Shown: piece after piece, positions 11,474 to 54,903 of the stretch
Numbering within the stretch: position 1 is the stretch's first letter
Layout: each line of letters opens with the position of its first letter
The notes under the pieces: model-generated
Told to the model about the DNA's origin: nothing
What the model saw: the letters and a program-made list of their open reading frames with translations, nothing else
The model's database searches: none
Translations under genes and position numbers: made by a program
Assembly (NCBI GenBank): GCA_041665545.1
Contig: JBAYIQ010000001.1
Coordinates: 222,448-286,447 of the forward strand
Length of the DNA stretch: 64,000 nt
Direction of reading: 5' to 3'
From: Patescibacteria group bacterium
Lineage (GTDB): Bacteria; Patescibacteriota; Patescibacteriia; UBA1558; GWA2-36-10

Positions 11474-13126
11474 TTAAACAACGTCCCAAGTGTCACGAAT
11501 CAACCGCTTAGCTTCTTTCTCAGCTTTCGCTAAGTAAGACGCTAAACTTGTCTGCCTGACAAGGCCACCTTCTGATATCAGATAGGTTTCAGTACTCTTG
11601 AATCTTTCCAAGAAATAGCGATCATGGGAAACCAAGATCACTGTCCCTTGGTAGTGCTGGACTACCTCCTCCAAGGCATCCAGTGCTTCCAAATCAAGGT
11701 GATTGGTGGGCTCATCAAGCAACAAAACATTTACCGACAGACTGGAAAAAATTGCCAATAGCAGTCTAGCCCTACCACCGGGCGACAGATCAGCAACTTT
11801 CTTATCAAGCTCCTCTGCCTGAAAACCATATCTGACTGCTAGAGCATAAGCATCTTGCCTTGCCAATTTGCCCCGCTTCATCAAACAGTCCTTCATGCTA
11901 TCAGTACGCGGCAAATTATCGTGCTCTTGCATCAGATTACCCATGACTAGAGAGGTGCCCAAGACAACAGAACCAGCAAGCGGAATCAATTGTCCGCTTA
12001 TGGTTTTGAGCAAAGTGGACTTACCTGAGCCATTCGGACCAATTATCGCCAATCGACTGCCATATGGCACAAACAAAGAAACTGGTCCAATGCTGAAGCC
12101 CTGGCTATAGCCAGCCACTACTTCATTGAGCGCGATATCTCGCGTTCCACCGGGCTTTTGGGGCTCAAGCTCGATGCGAAACATTTCTCGCTCCACTGGC
12201 TTGGCCACAGAATCCATGTGCTCAATCCGCTTCTCAATGGCTTTGGCGGTTTTGCCAGAACCAGCTGAACGATCTCGTTTGAAGCCTCGCAAGTACTTGT
12301 CATTGTCTTTGCCTCGATAACACGCGCCTTGCGTGGCCTCAACGCGCTTGGCTCTAGCTGACTCAGTCAACCTCCTTATTTCCTCCTGTTGCGCCATGAA
12401 GACTTCCAACTGATGCTCTCGTTCTTTGCCCGCTCTAGCCAGATACTCTGAGTACAGGCCATTGGTTATGGTCAACTGACGAGTATACCAGTCAATCTCC
12501 ATGATCTTGTGCACCACACGATCAAGAAAAAGACGGTCATGCGAGACAACTAAGCAAATGGCTTTGGACTTGGTAAGGAAATGCTCGAGCCAGATCAAAG
12601 CTGGTAAATCAAGATTGTTGGTTGGCTCATCCAACAAAAGCAAGTCAGCGTCAGCCAGCAGTACTCCGGCCATAAACACTTTACTTTTCTGCCCAGCAGA
12701 CAAGGTGTTTATCGGTCGATCACCAGCGAGCAGACGAAGACCAAGGCCAGCCAAGACTAGCTCCAGGCGGTGCTGGAAACCATAGCCATTTCTTCGCTCG
12801 TACTCAACTTGCGCATCCGAAGATGAGTCCAAACATTGCTCCAATGAAGCCATGCCCGAGACTCTGTGCAGATACTGCTCTACGGTCTCCTCAGAAACCA
12901 AGCTGGTGTCCTGAGGCAGATAAGCAAAAACTAGCCCCTTTCTTTTTTTGACAGTACCGCTGTCTGGCTCCACAACTCCGGCTAATATTTTTAGCAGAGT
13001 TGATTTGCCAGTGCCGTTGTTACCCACCAAGGCGACTTTTTGCCCCCTTTCCAAAGAAAAAGAAACATTGTCTAGAACCGTAATCGTGCCGAACACTTTG
13101 CTAACTTTTTCAACCTTGAGTTCCAT
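11474..13126 (-). CDS. ABC-F family ATPase with two ABC domains and no transmembrane domain
   Basis: 550 aa. Two Walker A sites (GNNGTGKST and GPNGSGKST) and two LSGGQ-like signatures (LSAGQKSK, LSPGGRARL). The gene is visibly more GC-rich (about 45-50%) than its neighbours. Confidence 0.85.
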   Translation of the reverse strand: MELKVEKVSKVFGTITVLDNVSFSLERGQKVALVGNNGTGKSTLLKILAGVVEPDSGTVKKRKGLVFAYLPQDTSLVSEETVEQYLHRVSGMASLEQCLDSSSDAQVEYERRNGYGFQHRLELVLAGLGLRLLAGDRPINTLSAGQKSKVFMAGVLLADADLLLLDEPTNNLDLPALIWLEHFLTKSKAICLVVSHDRLFLDRVVHKIMEIDWYTRQLTITNGLYSEYLARAGKEREHQLEVFMAQQEEIRRLTESARAKRVEATQGACYRGKDNDKYLRGFKRDRSAGSGKTAKAIEKRIEHMDSVAKPVEREMFRIELEPQKPGGTRDIALNEVVAGYSQGFSIGPVSLFVPYGSRLAIIGPNGSGKSTLLKTISGQLIPLAGSVVLGTSLVMGNLMQEHDNLPRTDSMKDCLMKRGKLARQDAYALAVRYGFQAEELDKKVADLSPGGRARLLLAIFSSLSVNVLLLDEPTNHLDLEALDALEEVVQHYQGTVILVSHDRYFLERFKSTETYLISEGGLVRQTSLASYLAKAEKEAKRLIRDTWDVV

Positions 13127-37105: not shown

Positions 37106-37166
37106 ATTTTTTACCTTGTTAAATAATATTTAAGCGTCTATATTATACCAAATTTTAAAGCAAAAG

Positions 37167-37832
37167 TCATTGATAATTTTTCACAAAATATTTTCTCCAT
37201 ATTTCATAAATCGGCGCCCAATATAATGAAAAAGAAAAAATCCACAAAAATTCTTCCACCGGAATACCGGCCAGCAAAATGCCAGATAAATTATTAAATT
37301 GGTAGCTGGCTGACAACTCAGGGTATGTGTACCACAAGAAATAATAAAAAATTGAATAGATAAGCGTACTAACAATAGCGGCATAAATTATTTTTTTGGC
37401 TTCAGCACCCGCGTAAATCATCGCAATAAATGCACCAATTAGCATTGACAAGCAAACATAATACATTAAATTAAAATCAAAGGGTCTAAAAAAATAAGAT
37501 AAAAATAAAACCGGCGCCAGCAGGGTCAAAAAAGGATTTATTTTTTTACATTGAAACAAATTTTTTTGAAAAAATATTTGATAAGCCACGGCTGAAACAC
37601 CGCCCAGGAAAAAACAAAATAAAATGCTTTCTAGAAATAGCTCCTGACCCAAGGGTATTGTCTTAAATTGTGGAATCCAGTATTCGGGAATAAACAAGCA
37701 CTCTGATATCCCCAAAGGAGCTGCCAAAAAACTGGATACTAATATTTTTTTTCGCAAATCTTTTCTGAAAATAAAAAACATCAGCCAAATAAAAGCATAA
37801 ATGCCACTACCAATCAAATACACATAAACCAT
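37167..37832 (-). CDS. Hypothetical polytopic membrane protein
   Basis: 221 aa, highly hydrophobic, no motif recognised. Confidence 0.4.
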   Translation of the reverse strand: MVYVYLIGSGIYAFIWLMFFIFRKDLRKKILVSSFLAAPLGISECLFIPEYWIPQFKTIPLGQELFLESILFCFFLGGVSAVAYQIFFQKNLFQCKKINPFLTLLAPVLFLSYFFRPFDFNLMYYVCLSMLIGAFIAMIYAGAEAKKIIYAAIVSTLIYSIFYYFLWYTYPELSASYQFNNLSGILLAGIPVEEFLWIFSFSLYWAPIYEIWRKYFVKNYQ

Positions 37833-37851
37833 ATAATAAAAATAAACTGAC

Positions 37852-38697
37852 CTAATTCTTACATTTTAATTCTTCGTTATAAGGATACTCTACTATTTCA
37901 CCATTGATTTCCAAAGCAACACTCTGTTTGTCTAAACAGACTTTGATGACTTGGCCACTGCCTAGCTTGGTTTTTATAATATCACCAATTTTTGGTGCCT
38001 GACCTTCGGCAAATCTATAATTTTCCTCTTCAAATCTCAAGCAACATTTCAGACGGCCACAGACACCGGTCAGACGATCAACTCCCCGGTGCATCAAATC
38101 TTGATTCTTGATGCAATCAGGATTGACCTTGCCAATTCGCGAAAGCCAAGCTTTGCAACACAAGGGCAAACCACAAGATCCCACATCACCACCAATTCTG
38201 GCGGCATCTCTGACGCCAATCTGCTGTAAGCGAATTTTTTCGTGAAAAGTAGCGGCCAAATCTTTGACCAAATCACGAAAATCAACTCTGGTGTTGGAAA
38301 TAAAATAAATGGTCAAATGGCTATTATCTAGCGACTCCGAAACATCAATCAGCTTCATTTCTTTGAGTTTGTGCTTTTGGCACAGTTCTTGAGCGATCTT
38401 CAAATATTGAGCATAATTAGCTTTATTTTCCTGGCTTTTTTCCAAATCATTTTTTCTAGCTTGTCTAGTTAGGGTTTTAAGATCACCGACGCTCTTTGCT
38501 TGAGCCACTTTTATTTTTTCTACTTCTGTTTCATTGCAATCCAAAAGTTCTGTCACTATACCCAAATCCCGGCCCAAAGCCGAGTCGGTTATTACTTGAT
38601 CATTGACCTTGACCTCATATCGTTGGTCTTCGCTAAATTCTGGCAAGAAAAAATATTCTTTTTCTAGCTTATGAAATTGTATTTTAGCTAACCTCAT
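37852..38697 (-). CDS. PSP1 C-terminal domain protein (RicT/YaaT-like)
   Basis: 281 aa with Cys-rich PSP1 signature CGLPLCCKAWL...CGRLKCCLRFE. Confidence 0.65.
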   Translation of the reverse strand: MRLAKIQFHKLEKEYFFLPEFSEDQRYEVKVNDQVITDSALGRDLGIVTELLDCNETEVEKIKVAQAKSVGDLKTLTRQARKNDLEKSQENKANYAQYLKIAQELCQKHKLKEMKLIDVSESLDNSHLTIYFISNTRVDFRDLVKDLAATFHEKIRLQQIGVRDAARIGGDVGSCGLPLCCKAWLSRIGKVNPDCIKNQDLMHRGVDRLTGVCGRLKCCLRFEEENYRFAEGQAPKIGDIIKTKLGSGQVIKVCLDKQSVALEINGEIVEYPYNEELKCKN

Positions 38698-38744
38698 TGT
38701 TTATATTAATAAGCAAAGTATGACAAATATTAGTAATAAAAACA

Positions 38745-38785
38745 AGGGTAAAAAAGAGGCCGGCACGCTGTGTCGCGCGCCGGCC
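38745..38785 (-). terminator. Rho-independent terminator of the GC-rich islet gene 38810-39316
   Basis: GC-rich hairpin ggccggc...gccggcc (38758-38785) followed on the minus strand by tctttttt. Confidence 0.5.
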
Positions 38786-38809
38786 GAGTAGTATTCGTCA
38801 AACCTCAAG

Positions 38810-39316
38810 TTATAATGCTCCCCACATGGAAAGCGTGTTCCTCTTGGGTGCTATCGGCTCATGCCCATTGATCCAACGTTTGCTGATCAGGATCGACAAT
38901 GGCCTAGCATCACGCCCATAAGGACGGATTGCCCAGACCGCCGTGGAATCTGTCACCTCACAATCGAAATAGATATCTCCCGGAAGTGGCTTTCTGTTGT
39001 TGGCCACTGCCGTCGCCCTATCTTCTAGATAGAACGATTCTCCGATAAAGGGGTTGTCCAGAGAAATCTCCGCCAGATAATGGATCGAGGTACCCGTCAC
39101 CTTGCCCACATCATACACACTGCAGGGCGGCTGGTTAGCGTTGGCGGCAAACCAGTCATCGGCCATGGCCTTGAGCTGCCAAGCATTGCGTATGCTGTGA
39201 CCTTCCATAATATTCAGCATTATCTCCTTGTCCGAAGCCTTATCGTGTTCCACGCGCGCTGCTACCGCGAAAAGGACAACCCCCACTGTCACTAGAATAC
39301 TTATTGATCTGTTCAT
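38810..39316 (-). CDS. Secreted hypothetical protein encoded in a GC-rich islet
   Basis: 168 aa with signal peptide MNRSISILVTVGVVLFAVAA. The gene and its flanks are markedly GC-rich relative to the surrounding genome, and it has its own promoter-like sequence and terminator. Confidence 0.5.
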   Translation of the reverse strand: MNRSISILVTVGVVLFAVAARVEHDKASDKEIMLNIMEGHSIRNAWQLKAMADDWFAANANQPPCSVYDVGKVTGTSIHYLAEISLDNPFIGESFYLEDRATAVANNRKPLPGDIYFDCEVTDSTAVWAIRPYGRDARPLSILISKRWINGHEPIAPKRNTLSMWGAL

Positions 39317-39423
39317 GACACGACATCCCTTCTAGTCCCTGGGGACTGCTTGAATACATGCTAAGAAGAACTCTTAATAAACTATTATTATCATAAGGTA
39401 ATATTAAAGTCAATTTTAAACAA

Positions 39424-39453
39424 ACAAAAAAACCACCCCGATAAATAGGGTGG
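39424..39453 (-). terminator. Rho-independent terminator for tsf
   Basis: Hairpin ccaccc-cgataaata-gggtgg followed on the minus strand by a T-run. Confidence 0.5.
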
Positions 39454-39462
39454 CTTTTTCTT

Positions 39463-40239
39463 TTATAACGAGAAGTAAAAAAATTTATCAATTTCCGCTT
39501 TGTTGGCTTGCAAATACTGTTCAATGGTCTGCTTGTCATCTTTGACATATGGCTGCCCGAGCAAGCACACTTCCGAATAAAATTTAGCAATTTTACCGGG
39601 CATAATCTTTTCCCACATGGCCTCTGGTTTGCCTTCGTTTTTCAATTGCTCAGTATAGATTTCTTTTTCTTTGGCCACTATTTCGGCGGGTACATCTTCC
39701 GGACGCAAATATTTTGGCGACATAGCGGCTGTATGCATGGCCACTTCTTTGGCAATTTCCGCTGTTCCTGATTGGAGAGTGACAACAGCGGCTACTTTGC
39801 GATTGGAATGCAAATAGCTACCCATGATATCGGCTTCAATTAAATCAAAATTAGCCAACTGCAAATTTTCACCGATTTTGACAATAAAATCATTTTGGAT
39901 TTTATCAGTCGCCCAAACTTGAAAATCATCCTTACCTCTTTTCAACAATTCTTGGGCTAGCTCTTGGACGCTATTTATAAAATCTTTATTTAGGGCCACA
40001 AAATCTGTTTCACAACCCAAACCAACGACCGCTAATTTTTTACCCTCAACAGCAAAAACAATAGCGCCTTCTTTGATCTGGCGTTCCGCTTTTTTGGCGG
40101 CAATTTTCTGCCCAGCTTTACGTAATATTTCCACGGCTTTGGTTTCATCACCATTGGCCTCGTTCAAAGCTTTGTTGATATCAGACATACCAGCGCCTGT
40201 GGCAAGGCGTATTTTTTTTACTAATTCTAAATTAGGCAT
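39463..40239 (-). CDS. tsf: Elongation factor Ts
   Basis: 258 aa. N-terminal UBA-like LVKKIRLATGAGMSDINKALNEANGD plus EF-Ts dimerisation core. Adjacent to rpsB. Confidence 0.9.
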   Translation of the reverse strand: MPNLELVKKIRLATGAGMSDINKALNEANGDETKAVEILRKAGQKIAAKKAERQIKEGAIVFAVEGKKLAVVGLGCETDFVALNKDFINSVQELAQELLKRGKDDFQVWATDKIQNDFIVKIGENLQLANFDLIEADIMGSYLHSNRKVAAVVTLQSGTAEIAKEVAMHTAAMSPKYLRPEDVPAEIVAKEKEIYTEQLKNEGKPEAMWEKIMPGKIAKFYSEVCLLGQPYVKDDKQTIEQYLQANKAEIDKFFYFSL

Positions 40240-43824: not shown

Positions 43825-43908
43825 AACCCCCACGCGCCGAAGCGAATGGGGGCTTTGAAAAGGATCTAGTCAGACCGGTGAACCAGACAATGTCTCATCG
43901 GCACAACT

Positions 43909-44220
43909 CTAGATTCTTGTTGAGCCATCACCGACAAGACCGTCGCCTGACGAACCGTGCTCGACCTCGTCTACAATGGGCTGTTCGGCGGTAGCGACTT
44001 CGGGAGCCCTCAGTGGCATATCCAGAAATGGCTCGACACGCTGATGCAACTTGAAGGCATCCGGCTCGCTAGCTGCCAGAACGATAACCTTCCTGAATAG
44101 ATCTCTGGCAGTGCCCATATTACGCGCCAAGTTGCGTATGTTGAGCCCACCCTGCAGACCGCTGTCAAGAGAGCTACTGAAGAGACTAATCAGAAATGCA
44201 CGCTCATCTGAGTCTAGCAT
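43909..44220 (-). CDS. Hypothetical protein in a GC-rich islet
   Basis: 104 aa from ATG at 44220 (MLDSDERAFLISLF...) with GGAGGGAGG 6 nt upstream. Local GC is far above the genome background. Confidence 0.4.
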   Translation of the reverse strand: MLDSDERAFLISLFSSSLDSGLQGGLNIRNLARNMGTARDLFRKVIVLAASEPDAFKLHQRVEPFLDMPLRAPEVATAEQPIVDEVEHGSSGDGLVGDGSTRI

Positions 44221-44390
44221 CTTACACCTCCCTCCAAACACGGGTTAATGTACAATAGATTCAAGCCCATCTTACAATATCAATCAAATTTGTCAACAAA
44301 AAAAGCCAAAATACTGGGCTAGGCAAAATAAAAACCCAGTGCTAATATAATACAATTGGGAAAAATCGGGTACGAAAGGAGGTGCACCCG

Positions 44391-44597
44391 ATGCCTAGCA
44401 TGACCAAGTATGTTGTCTTCACTGGCCACAACCCCGCCGTTCCTTTTCCGCACTTCGAGCTCCGGATCGAGAGTCTCTCTGTCGACGATGTCGTGGAGTG
44501 CAGACACGACCAGCAGGTGTTCCACTTCCGTGTCACCGAGATCGACAGCTGGTTGATGACTGCCAAAGCCGTTCTGCACGCCAAGGGCGCAACCTGA
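44391..44597 (+). CDS. Small hypothetical protein in a GC-rich islet
   Basis: 68 aa (MPSMTKYVVFTGHNPAVPF...) with AAGGAGG 9 nt upstream of ATG 44391. Divergent from 43909-44220. Confidence 0.4.
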   Translation: MPSMTKYVVFTGHNPAVPFPHFELRIESLSVDDVVECRHDQQVFHFRVTEIDSWLMTAKAVLHAKGAT

Positions 44598-44617
44598 AAC
44601 GGAGCCCGAACCGAAAA

Positions 44618-44672
44618 CCGCCCTGTACCAGTCGCCACTTGTGTGGCTCCGGTACAGGGCGGGTATTTTTTT
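44618..44672 (+). terminator. Rho-independent terminator, possibly bidirectional
   Basis: Stem ccgccctgtacc/ggtacagggcgg with an inner stem gccac/gtggc, followed by tattttttt. A-runs lie on the other side. Confidence 0.55.
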
Positions 44673-54021: not shown

Positions 54022-54783
54022 TTACTCCCGAAAGGCCGGCACCGCCCACTCGTCGCACTGACTGCCAAGGTGAAAGGTGCGCAGCCAGAACTGACGCATA
54101 TCAGCATCCCAGCCGAAACACGGCACGAACTGCCAGTCTAGAAAGATGGGGGCGCAGGCCTCGTAACCAGGCAAGAAGACATAGGGAATATCCTTGCCGT
54201 TCATGGCCGACACCCACTTCGGACTGTAGTAAGCCATCCAGAGAATGGCCGCGGCCGGAGACTGGACAGAGTCGCGCACGTCCACGGACTTGCGGTTCTG
54301 GTTGGCACCCAGATCCACGATGCGCCACTTGAGACCTCGGCTGTGCTGACCCGAAAGCAGACGCAAGTGCTCGGAATCGGACAGAAGCCCACCCAAGCGA
54401 CTACTATTCGGCTGCTTGCTGGCGGCCAGCTGCCAGGCCGTATCGAAAGTCCGTTGAACGGTGTCCAAACAGACCTCCAGTATGACGACCGTCAGACGCG
54501 TGGTGTTGGCAGGCACAGGAGCCTGACCGAGCTTGATGAAATCCTCGTCGGTGAAGCCCCAGCAGTGCTGGACGTTAAGCACCTTGACCATGGAAAGCTG
54601 CTGAGCCGGGGTGGCGAACATGCCGTGGATGAGGTCGCACTCGAAGCCGCGACCCTCGACGATGCACTGCAGTTGATCGATGGTTGTGTTGAAGAGAATC
54701 GTGCCCTGATTGGCACGCCGCTTCACCTCGTCCAGTCTCCTGTCTAGTACTCTGTACTGCTCGTCGGACAATACGCTCGTCAT
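54022..54783 (-). CDS. Hypothetical protein in a GC-rich islet
   Basis: 253 aa from ATG 54783 (MTSVLSDEQYRVLDRRLDEVKRR...) with AAGGAGGG 6 nt upstream. Local GC is far above background. Terminator hairpin ggctcggaa/ttccgagcc at 53953-53994. Confidence 0.5.
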   Translation of the reverse strand: MTSVLSDEQYRVLDRRLDEVKRRANQGTILFNTTIDQLQCIVEGRGFECDLIHGMFATPAQQLSMVKVLNVQHCWGFTDEDFIKLGQAPVPANTTRLTVVILEVCLDTVQRTFDTAWQLAASKQPNSSRLGGLLSDSEHLRLLSGQHSRGLKWRIVDLGANQNRKSVDVRDSVQSPAAAILWMAYYSPKWVSAMNGKDIPYVFLPGYEACAPIFLDWQFVPCFGWDADMRQFWLRTFHLGSQCDEWAVPAFRE

Positions 54784-54903
54784 GACAAGCCCTCCTTTTG
54801 ATATTTTGCTGTTTTTTAGTATTTGGCTTATCCAAAACACCAAAAAACAACGGTTGTGAAAGAACAATATAATATATAACTTTTTAATAATTTTGTCAAT
54901 ATC

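Follow-up and report, generated by a model that had tools for sequence, protein, structure and literature searches.

We propose that a 678-bp GC-rich segment (islet A) in the ~37% GC chromosome of an uncultured member of the Patescibacteria is, on balance, probably a recently acquired, self-contained single-gene expression cassette. The segment lies on the minus strand of the window, as we call the whole 64-kb stretch of DNA analysed, and contains one small ORF; within it, a promoter-like site, a Shine-Dalgarno (SD)-like leader, the 168-codon ORF and a strong GC-rich terminator follow one another in that order (Table 1). The first-pass annotation of the window had taken this stretch for a horizontally acquired cassette, and the empty sites in relatives, the foreign composition and codon usage, and an SD motif that is alien to the host all support this claim. 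The insertion is recent and lineage-specific, and its architecture is already known in kind. Taken alone, islet A is a routine case of a streamlined symbiont-type genome having recently gained a gene; it is of value as a clean, well-bounded example, with a known empty site, known junctions and intact neighbours.

Table 1. Features of the inserted segment, its neighbours and a further GC-rich islet (window coordinates)
Feature	Position	Strand	Basis or remark
Inserted segment	38749..39426	-	BLASTN and pairwise alignment against L001 and L002
Sigma-70-type promoter-like site, TTGACT-18-AATAAT, 10/12	39413..39384	-	Sequence match
Predicted 5' leader with small hairpin AGTCCC/GGGACT and SD-like GAAGGGA	39317..39376	-	
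Orphan-protein ORF, 168 codons, ATG start	38810..39316	-	ORF call, composition, coding tests
Codons 1-20, MNRSISILVTVGVVLFAVAA (putative N-terminal signal or anchor)	39257..39316	-	Hydropathy scan and inspection; presupposes the first ATG
Intrinsic terminator of the cassette	38785..38750	-	GGCCGGCGCGCG-ACACAG-CGTGCCGGCC and T-run
Native tsf terminator	39426..39460	-	Conserved in relatives
EF-Ts gene tsf	39463..40239		PF00889, 2.5e-59
Native spacer and promoter region of the PSP1/RicT-like gene	38698..38748	-	Alignment to L001 and L002
PSP1/RicT-type gene	37852..38697		PF04468, 6e-24
DGR-target islet	54022-54867	-	Related loci L015 5001-7798, L013, L017

Genomic setting and the empty site in relatives

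The wider surroundings of the segment are of a housekeeping kind, comprising cysS, gap, PSP1/ricT, tsf, rpsB, rpmE, prfA and prmC, and the Pfam matches on either side (PF04468 and PF00889) bear out its earlier placement between a ricT-like gene and tsf. The extent first assigned to it, 38745-39420, agrees almost exactly with the mapped extent of 38749-39426. The insert begins where the T-run of the tsf terminator stops and closes with a T-run that belongs to its own terminator; the spacer and promoter region of the PSP1 gene is kept intact downstream. The product of the ORF is held in public records as MFA6252891.1 (locus tag WC687_01305).

With the PSP1 protein as query, a scan limited to one genome per species yielded six loci (L001-L006). 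The closest relatives found, L001 and L002, share ~90% nucleotide identity with the window, and have ~92-94 nt between the end of tsf and the start of PSP1 with no intervening ORF; the layout of this empty site consists of the tsf terminator, a spacer of ~60 nt and the PSP1 gene. The relatives read ...GGGGTGGTTTTTT-GG(G/T)GT-CCCTTGT..., and the window reads ...GGGGTGGTTTTTTT-[678 bp]-CCCTTGT..., so that the insert stands where the empty site has 5 nt, either GGGGT or GGTGT. The site is likewise empty in the more distant L003 and L006. Since the tsf-ricT interval lacks the insert in all four of these relatives, the segment is an insertion, and on the alignments a single insertion in the lineage of the window is much more parsimonious than several precise deletions. 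A gene of native composition at the same site in relatives had been named at the outset as one finding that would speak against transfer, and no relative has the gene at all.

In the two remaining loci, L004 and L005, the site upstream of PSP1 (in L005, the tsf-PSP1 spacer) is occupied by a DKNYY-family gene, which encodes 406/407 aa with an N-terminal membrane segment (3658-4881 in L005). The gene in L004 has copies of the tsf terminator on either side (2930-2965 and 4214-4259), and tsf is not upstream of it. The occurrence of another gene at the same site indicates that the spacer is a permissive hot spot. The occupant of the site in L005 shows no similarity to the islet A protein.

The junctions of the segment recur in public assemblies. 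Six kb including both junctions are 100% identical in JGI Ga0376277_0000288 (295,640 bp) and in ENA k141_1577091 (250,212 bp), Logan SRR6484324_1056 is identical over its 3.7 kb, both junctions included, and two NCBI MAG records also carry the segment; there is in addition a second contig version of 295,633 bp. The presence of the same junctions across pipelines (JGI, NCBI, ENA and Logan) makes an assembler-specific chimera very unlikely; the identical assemblies may, however, go back to related samples or to common read sets, and their independence is not fully established.

Composition, coding character and translation signals

The ORF departs from the rest of the window in composition, with a GC of 0.515 and a GC3 of 0.59 against medians of 0.38 and 0.35 for the 51 long ORFs of the window, and against a GC of 0.39-0.40 in the neighbouring genes. 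In 300-nt windows, GC peaks at 0.51 across the ORF and is ~0.37-0.40 in the flanks. The synonymous codon-usage score of the ORF is -0.244, compared with 0.153 +/- 0.038 for native genes (z = -10.3), which places it second among the genes of the window for codon-usage atypicality; the GC windows and the codon usage are both in agreement with the foreign composition reported at first sight. The GC-rich part begins ~30 nt ahead of the start codon, and the promoter-bearing first ~60 nt of the insert has a GC content of 17%.

The codon-position pattern of the ORF is typical of coding DNA, with GC1/GC2/GC3 of 0.53/0.43/0.59; at position 1, purines make up 66% and G 35% of the bases. When the GC-rich core was shuffled 5000 times, 40 of the shuffled sequences (0.8%) attained 173 codons without a stop. 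The remaining five frames of the segment contain 6-17 stops each, and the segment is therefore not a recognisable gene in another frame.

The SD motif of islet A is an independent sign of foreign origin. The native genes are essentially without SD motifs, the median anti-SD duplex being -0.4 kcal/mol for 41 scored starts, of which 39 are native; no native duplex is stronger than -6.9 kcal/mol. Among the GC-rich islets, the duplex amounts to -6.2 kcal/mol for the ORF of islet A, -12.3 kcal/mol for the gene starting at 54783 and -15.8 kcal/mol for the gene starting at 44220. The motifs concerned are AAAGGAGGG ahead of 54783 and GGAGGGAGG ahead of 44220, and a further one, AAGGAGGTG, precedes the plus-strand ORF 44382-44597. 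The same contrast is repeated in L013. The type of translation signal, i.e. the presence or absence of SD, is thus a useful composition-independent marker of foreign genes in such genomes.

Promoter-like site and terminator

The promoter-like site upstream of the ORF can be read either as listed in Table 1 or, on the same bases, with a 17-nt spacer and TAATAA(T). The near-consensus promoter of the first-pass annotation (TTGACT, 17-nt spacer) is accordingly present as a string of bases, but the quality of the match is common: sites at least as good number 40 on the two strands of the window, ~1 per 3 kb of AT-rich DNA, so that the promoter match by itself is weak evidence. The terminator is of another order. 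It has an 11-bp stem (10 G-C pairs) and a 6-nt loop followed by TCTTTTTT, and its folding energy of -27.1 kcal/mol (z = -5.5) was matched by 0 of 200 shuffles; hairpin and T-run together match the GC-clamp terminator that had been noted downstream of the gene.

The encoded protein

Public records of the identical DNA give five different starts for the ORF, resulting in proteins of 168, 160, 158, 136 and 132 aa, and two MAGs in NCBI annotation disagree in the same way (168 vs 132 aa). We favour Met1 as the start. An in-frame stop lies six codons upstream of the first ATG, and the SD-like GAAGGGA ahead of this ATG is located at 39332..39326; the AAGGAG before Met33 forms a stronger duplex (-8.3 kcal/mol), but at a spacing of just 3 nt.

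Type I signal peptides consist of a positively charged n-region, a hydrophobic h-region of 10-16 residues and small residues at -3 and -1, and have no lipobox. Read from the first ATG, the protein has Arg3, followed by its sole hydrophobic segment (residues 4-20), which ends in A17-V18-A19-A20, with R21 next; on inspection, an L-x-x-C lipobox is absent from this N-terminal segment. The segment resembles a Sec signal peptide or an anchor at the N-terminus, and the product is probably a small exported protein, with a predicted mature part of ~16.6 kDa, a pI of 5.8 and 2 Cys. The uncertainty of the start codon extends to the signal peptide, as a start at Met33 or Met37 would take it away. Of the earlier description of a secreted protein with a clean signal peptide, the charged residue, the hydrophobic stretch and the A-V-A-A motif hold if translation begins at Met1, one of five starts called.

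No relative of the 168-aa protein was found among ~15 billion proteins. A word-indexed search of 5.8 billion clusters returned the protein itself only, and phmmer, run exhaustively against 1.84 billion representatives, recovered one other protein besides the query, P0002 (E = 5e-5). We rejected P0002 as a homologue: just 34 aa match (35-38% identity), and the hit adds up four identical repeats. P0002 also obtains spurious E-values at the level of the whole protein against many unrelated Pfam families, only one of which has a significant stretch. A 32-aa match in metagenome locus L007 was also rejected, as it lies outside any ORF of at least 60 aa; the metagenome contigs gave no other match, and none was obtained in IMG/VR or, at the protein and DNA level (tblastn, blastn), in phages and plasmids. 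In Rfam there was none at the gathering threshold and noise only below it. In line with the initial remark that the protein has no recognisable domain, Pfam, NCBIfam, PDB, PHROGs and PADLOC were all without a match, the sole entry being a PHROG at E = 0.19. AlphaFold2 without an alignment gave pLDDT values of 37 and 34.5 (full-length and mature runs) and no confident fold. As the protein is without a homologue in the databases searched, no donor can be named.

Other GC-rich islets in the window

At least four GC-rich islets occur in the 64-kb window, one of which is assigned to a DGR-target family with promoter and leader conserved across genomes. DGR target genes carry a 3' variable repeat that matches a template repeat with adenine-specific differences, and are accompanied by a reverse transcriptase (RT) and Avd. 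The GC-richest islet, 54022-54783 (253 aa, GC 0.59, GC3 0.76), has eleven homologues. In L015, bAvd and a reverse transcriptase come after the homologue, which over its 3' 130 nt matches a template repeat further downstream at 87%; the alignment of the family contains a hypervariable C-terminal block (~40 aa) flanked by invariant motifs. The promoter and SD leader of the 253-aa gene (..GGAGCTTGTC-ATGAC) recur in conserved form in both L013 and L015, and in three other genomes the GC of the homologues exceeds that of the flanking DNA. On these observations, the islet belongs to a DGR-target family whose GC-richness is intrinsic. Searches of the 64-kb window for a reverse transcriptase and Avd (tblastn with the L015 proteins) and for a template repeat (repeat search) found none. 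Since the DGR-target family is GC-rich in every genome examined, high GC alone is no proof of transfer in this genome.

Another GC-rich islet, 43825-44660, contains two small divergent orphan ORFs at 43909-44220 (minus strand, 103 aa) and 44382-44597 (plus strand, ~68-71 aa), neither of which has a match in Pfam, PHROG or PADLOC. The 103-aa unit is missing from L001, and L002 apparently has two tandem copies with the same GGAGGGAGGTGTAAGATG leader. A GC-richer stretch is also found at 4501-5000.

Proposed mechanism and alternative explanations

We propose the following series of events for islet A. Integration would most likely have been illegitimate or microhomology-mediated at a T-run, between a terminator and the next promoter; we infer this from the TTTTTT at both junctions and from the lack of a recombinase footprint. 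Once in place, host RNA polymerase would start at the AT-rich TTGACT/AATAAT site and the ribosome would initiate at the first ATG, aided by the weak SD motif. The 168-aa product would be exported via Sec by means of its N-terminal hydrophobic segment, which may be either cleaved after AVA/VAA or kept as an anchor. The cassette terminator would halt transcription ahead of the PSP1 gene, and, because the insert has its own GC-rich terminator at this point, neither neighbour would be disturbed. As to the role of the product, we would guess at an accessory protein specific to the strain, acting at the cell surface or outside the cell.

The arrangement of promoter-like, SD-like and terminator elements, which bracket the ORF in the correct order and orientation, makes it rather unlikely that the insert is inert foreign DNA from a GC-richer organism, taken up for example by natural transformation and illegitimately integrated, whose ORF is fortuitous or dead and yields no functional protein. 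Such an origin would be consistent with the failure to find a homologue among ~15 billion proteins, the lack of a confident AlphaFold2 fold, the disagreement of gene callers over the start and the unexceptional promoter match; long ORFs are also easier to obtain in GC-rich DNA, the length being reached in the 0.8% of shuffles given above. However, the ORF spans nearly all of the GC-rich core and has the codon-position periodicity of coding DNA, no other frame is open or matches anything, and an in-frame N-terminal segment resembling a signal is improbable by chance. It is decidedly improbable that the gene is instead ancestral, with an intrinsically high GC as in the family at 54022-54783, and was lost from the relatives. 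That family, being GC-rich against its flanks in three other genomes, does illustrate that such genes can persist, but the islet A gene would have had to be lost by precise deletion at least two to three times independently, with the same empty site as the outcome in L001/L002 and in L003/L006, no orthologue was found in the databases searched, other Patescibacteria included, and the SD-type leader is foreign to the style of the host.

The presence of a DGR-target family gene in the same window, similar to islet A in layout (AT-rich TTGACA promoter, SD, GC-rich CDS and GC-rich downstream hairpins), raises the question of whether islet A is itself a remote DGR target, i.e. a hypervariable surface protein with homologues hidden by rapid change. 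We hold this to be highly improbable, as the 64-kb window contains no repeat of any part of the insert, the insert does not resemble the variable region of the 253-aa gene, neither reverse transcriptase nor Avd is found in the window, hhalign against the DGR-target family gives a probability of 0.1%, and all public copies are identical and thus bear no sign of ongoing diversification. An assembly chimera, in which reads of a GC-richer organism were joined into a Patescibacteria contig, would produce a sharp change of composition and a gene unique to this contig family, both of which are seen; such an artefact is nonetheless scarcely credible when the same junctions occur in JGI, in ENA (k141, in MEGAHIT style) and in Logan, when contig versions of 295,640 and 295,633 bp carry them, and when the insert sits between intact native elements with no flanking sequence lost.

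Comparison with known kinds of inserted DNA

IS elements and MITEs are characterised by terminal inverted repeats, target-site duplication and multiple copies. No terminal inverted or direct repeats of the insert were found, no target-site duplication apart from the T-run common to both junctions, no second copy of any part of the insert within the 64-kb window and no recombinase gene next to it. An IS element or MITE was rejected on these grounds: the insert is without terminal inverted repeats, is present in a single copy in the window, and its junctions share only the T-run.

Integron cassettes are promoterless, possess an attC with a GTTRRRY core and stand in an array beside an integrase. 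Islet A resembles them as a compact single-gene intergenic unit followed by a GC-rich imperfect palindrome. Unlike them, it has its own promoter-like site and no adjacent integrase or array, and a T-run comes after its palindrome, which is the arrangement of an ordinary terminator. No attC-type GTTRRRY core is present at either boundary, the only GTTRRRY lying inside the ORF at 38877; with the internal promoter-like site and with tsf and PSP1 as neighbours, this led us to reject an integron cassette.

DGR targets, as represented by 54022-54783, are likewise GC-rich and SD-bearing, with an AT-rich promoter and GC-rich downstream hairpins. In contrast to them, islet A is without a VR/TR pair, without RT and Avd in the window, without similarity in sequence or profile, and without variation among copies.

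In layout, islet A matches phage morons such as gene 15 of HK97, in which added DNA of deviating GC lies between conserved neighbours and has its own promoter and terminator (PMC3594210). Islet A shares with morons the position of extra DNA between genes that are adjacent in relatives (four empty sites) and a composition that differs from that of the neighbours (GC 0.515 vs 0.39-0.40). Its terminator is strong, its promoter match is of common quality, and both are sequence matches. A moron-like layout with its own promoter and terminator would make independent transcription possible and leave the flanking operons undisturbed. Unlike a phage moron, islet A resides in chromosomal housekeeping DNA and not in a phage or prophage, and it has no PHROG, IMG/VR or phage match. 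By analogy, islet A may thus be said to work like a moron, without being one in the strict sense.

A study of horizontal transfer in Patescibacteria inferred transfers from donor-recipient gene pairs, mostly within Patescibacteria (PMC12455944). Islet A is likewise strain-specific, of atypical composition and located in a streamlined CPR genome, as are the transferred genes and islets of that study, but differs from them in having no donor or homologue in the databases searched. As an acquired cassette, it indicates that Patescibacteria are able to acquire and retain fully equipped single-gene units within core housekeeping clusters. If its product is exported and strain-specific, it would be a candidate for variation in cell surface and host interaction among close CPR strains. 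A broader suggestion, which we regard as quite improbable, is that islet A is one of a class of self-contained, GC-rich, SD-bearing cassettes that circulate among SD-less, AT-rich Patescibacteria and integrate beside terminator T-runs without a recombinase footprint; if true, such a class would possibly be tied to DGRs or to the uptake of DNA from host cells.

Further observations in the window

Between PSP1 and gap, ORF 37167-37832 encodes a membrane protein of 221 aa in which a lycopene-cyclase domain is recognised (PF18916, 5e-8). Its region (37153-37858) has a native-like GC of 0.33, yet is lineage-specific too: it is absent from L001, L002, L003 and L006, and L005 has an unrelated 85-aa ORF where the window carries this gene. 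A family of palindrome-rich intergenic repeats of 45-73 nt links several places in the window (52550-52622/55120-55191, 37111-37154/52633-52677 and 41826-41885/55119-55177); these short repeats adjoin the DGR-target islet and the 221-aa gene, both of them variable, and none occurs at islet A. An ABC-F-type ATPase of 550 aa (11474-13126, minus strand) is a further outlier in composition, with a GC of 0.48 and a codon-usage z of -4.9, its AT-rich neighbours having a GC of ~0.27. At the edge of the window, a stop-free frame of at least 2,532 codons (3-7598, minus strand) continues beyond the window start, and contains near this edge a motif (..PLKYTDDNGE..) that we take to be RHS-core-like.
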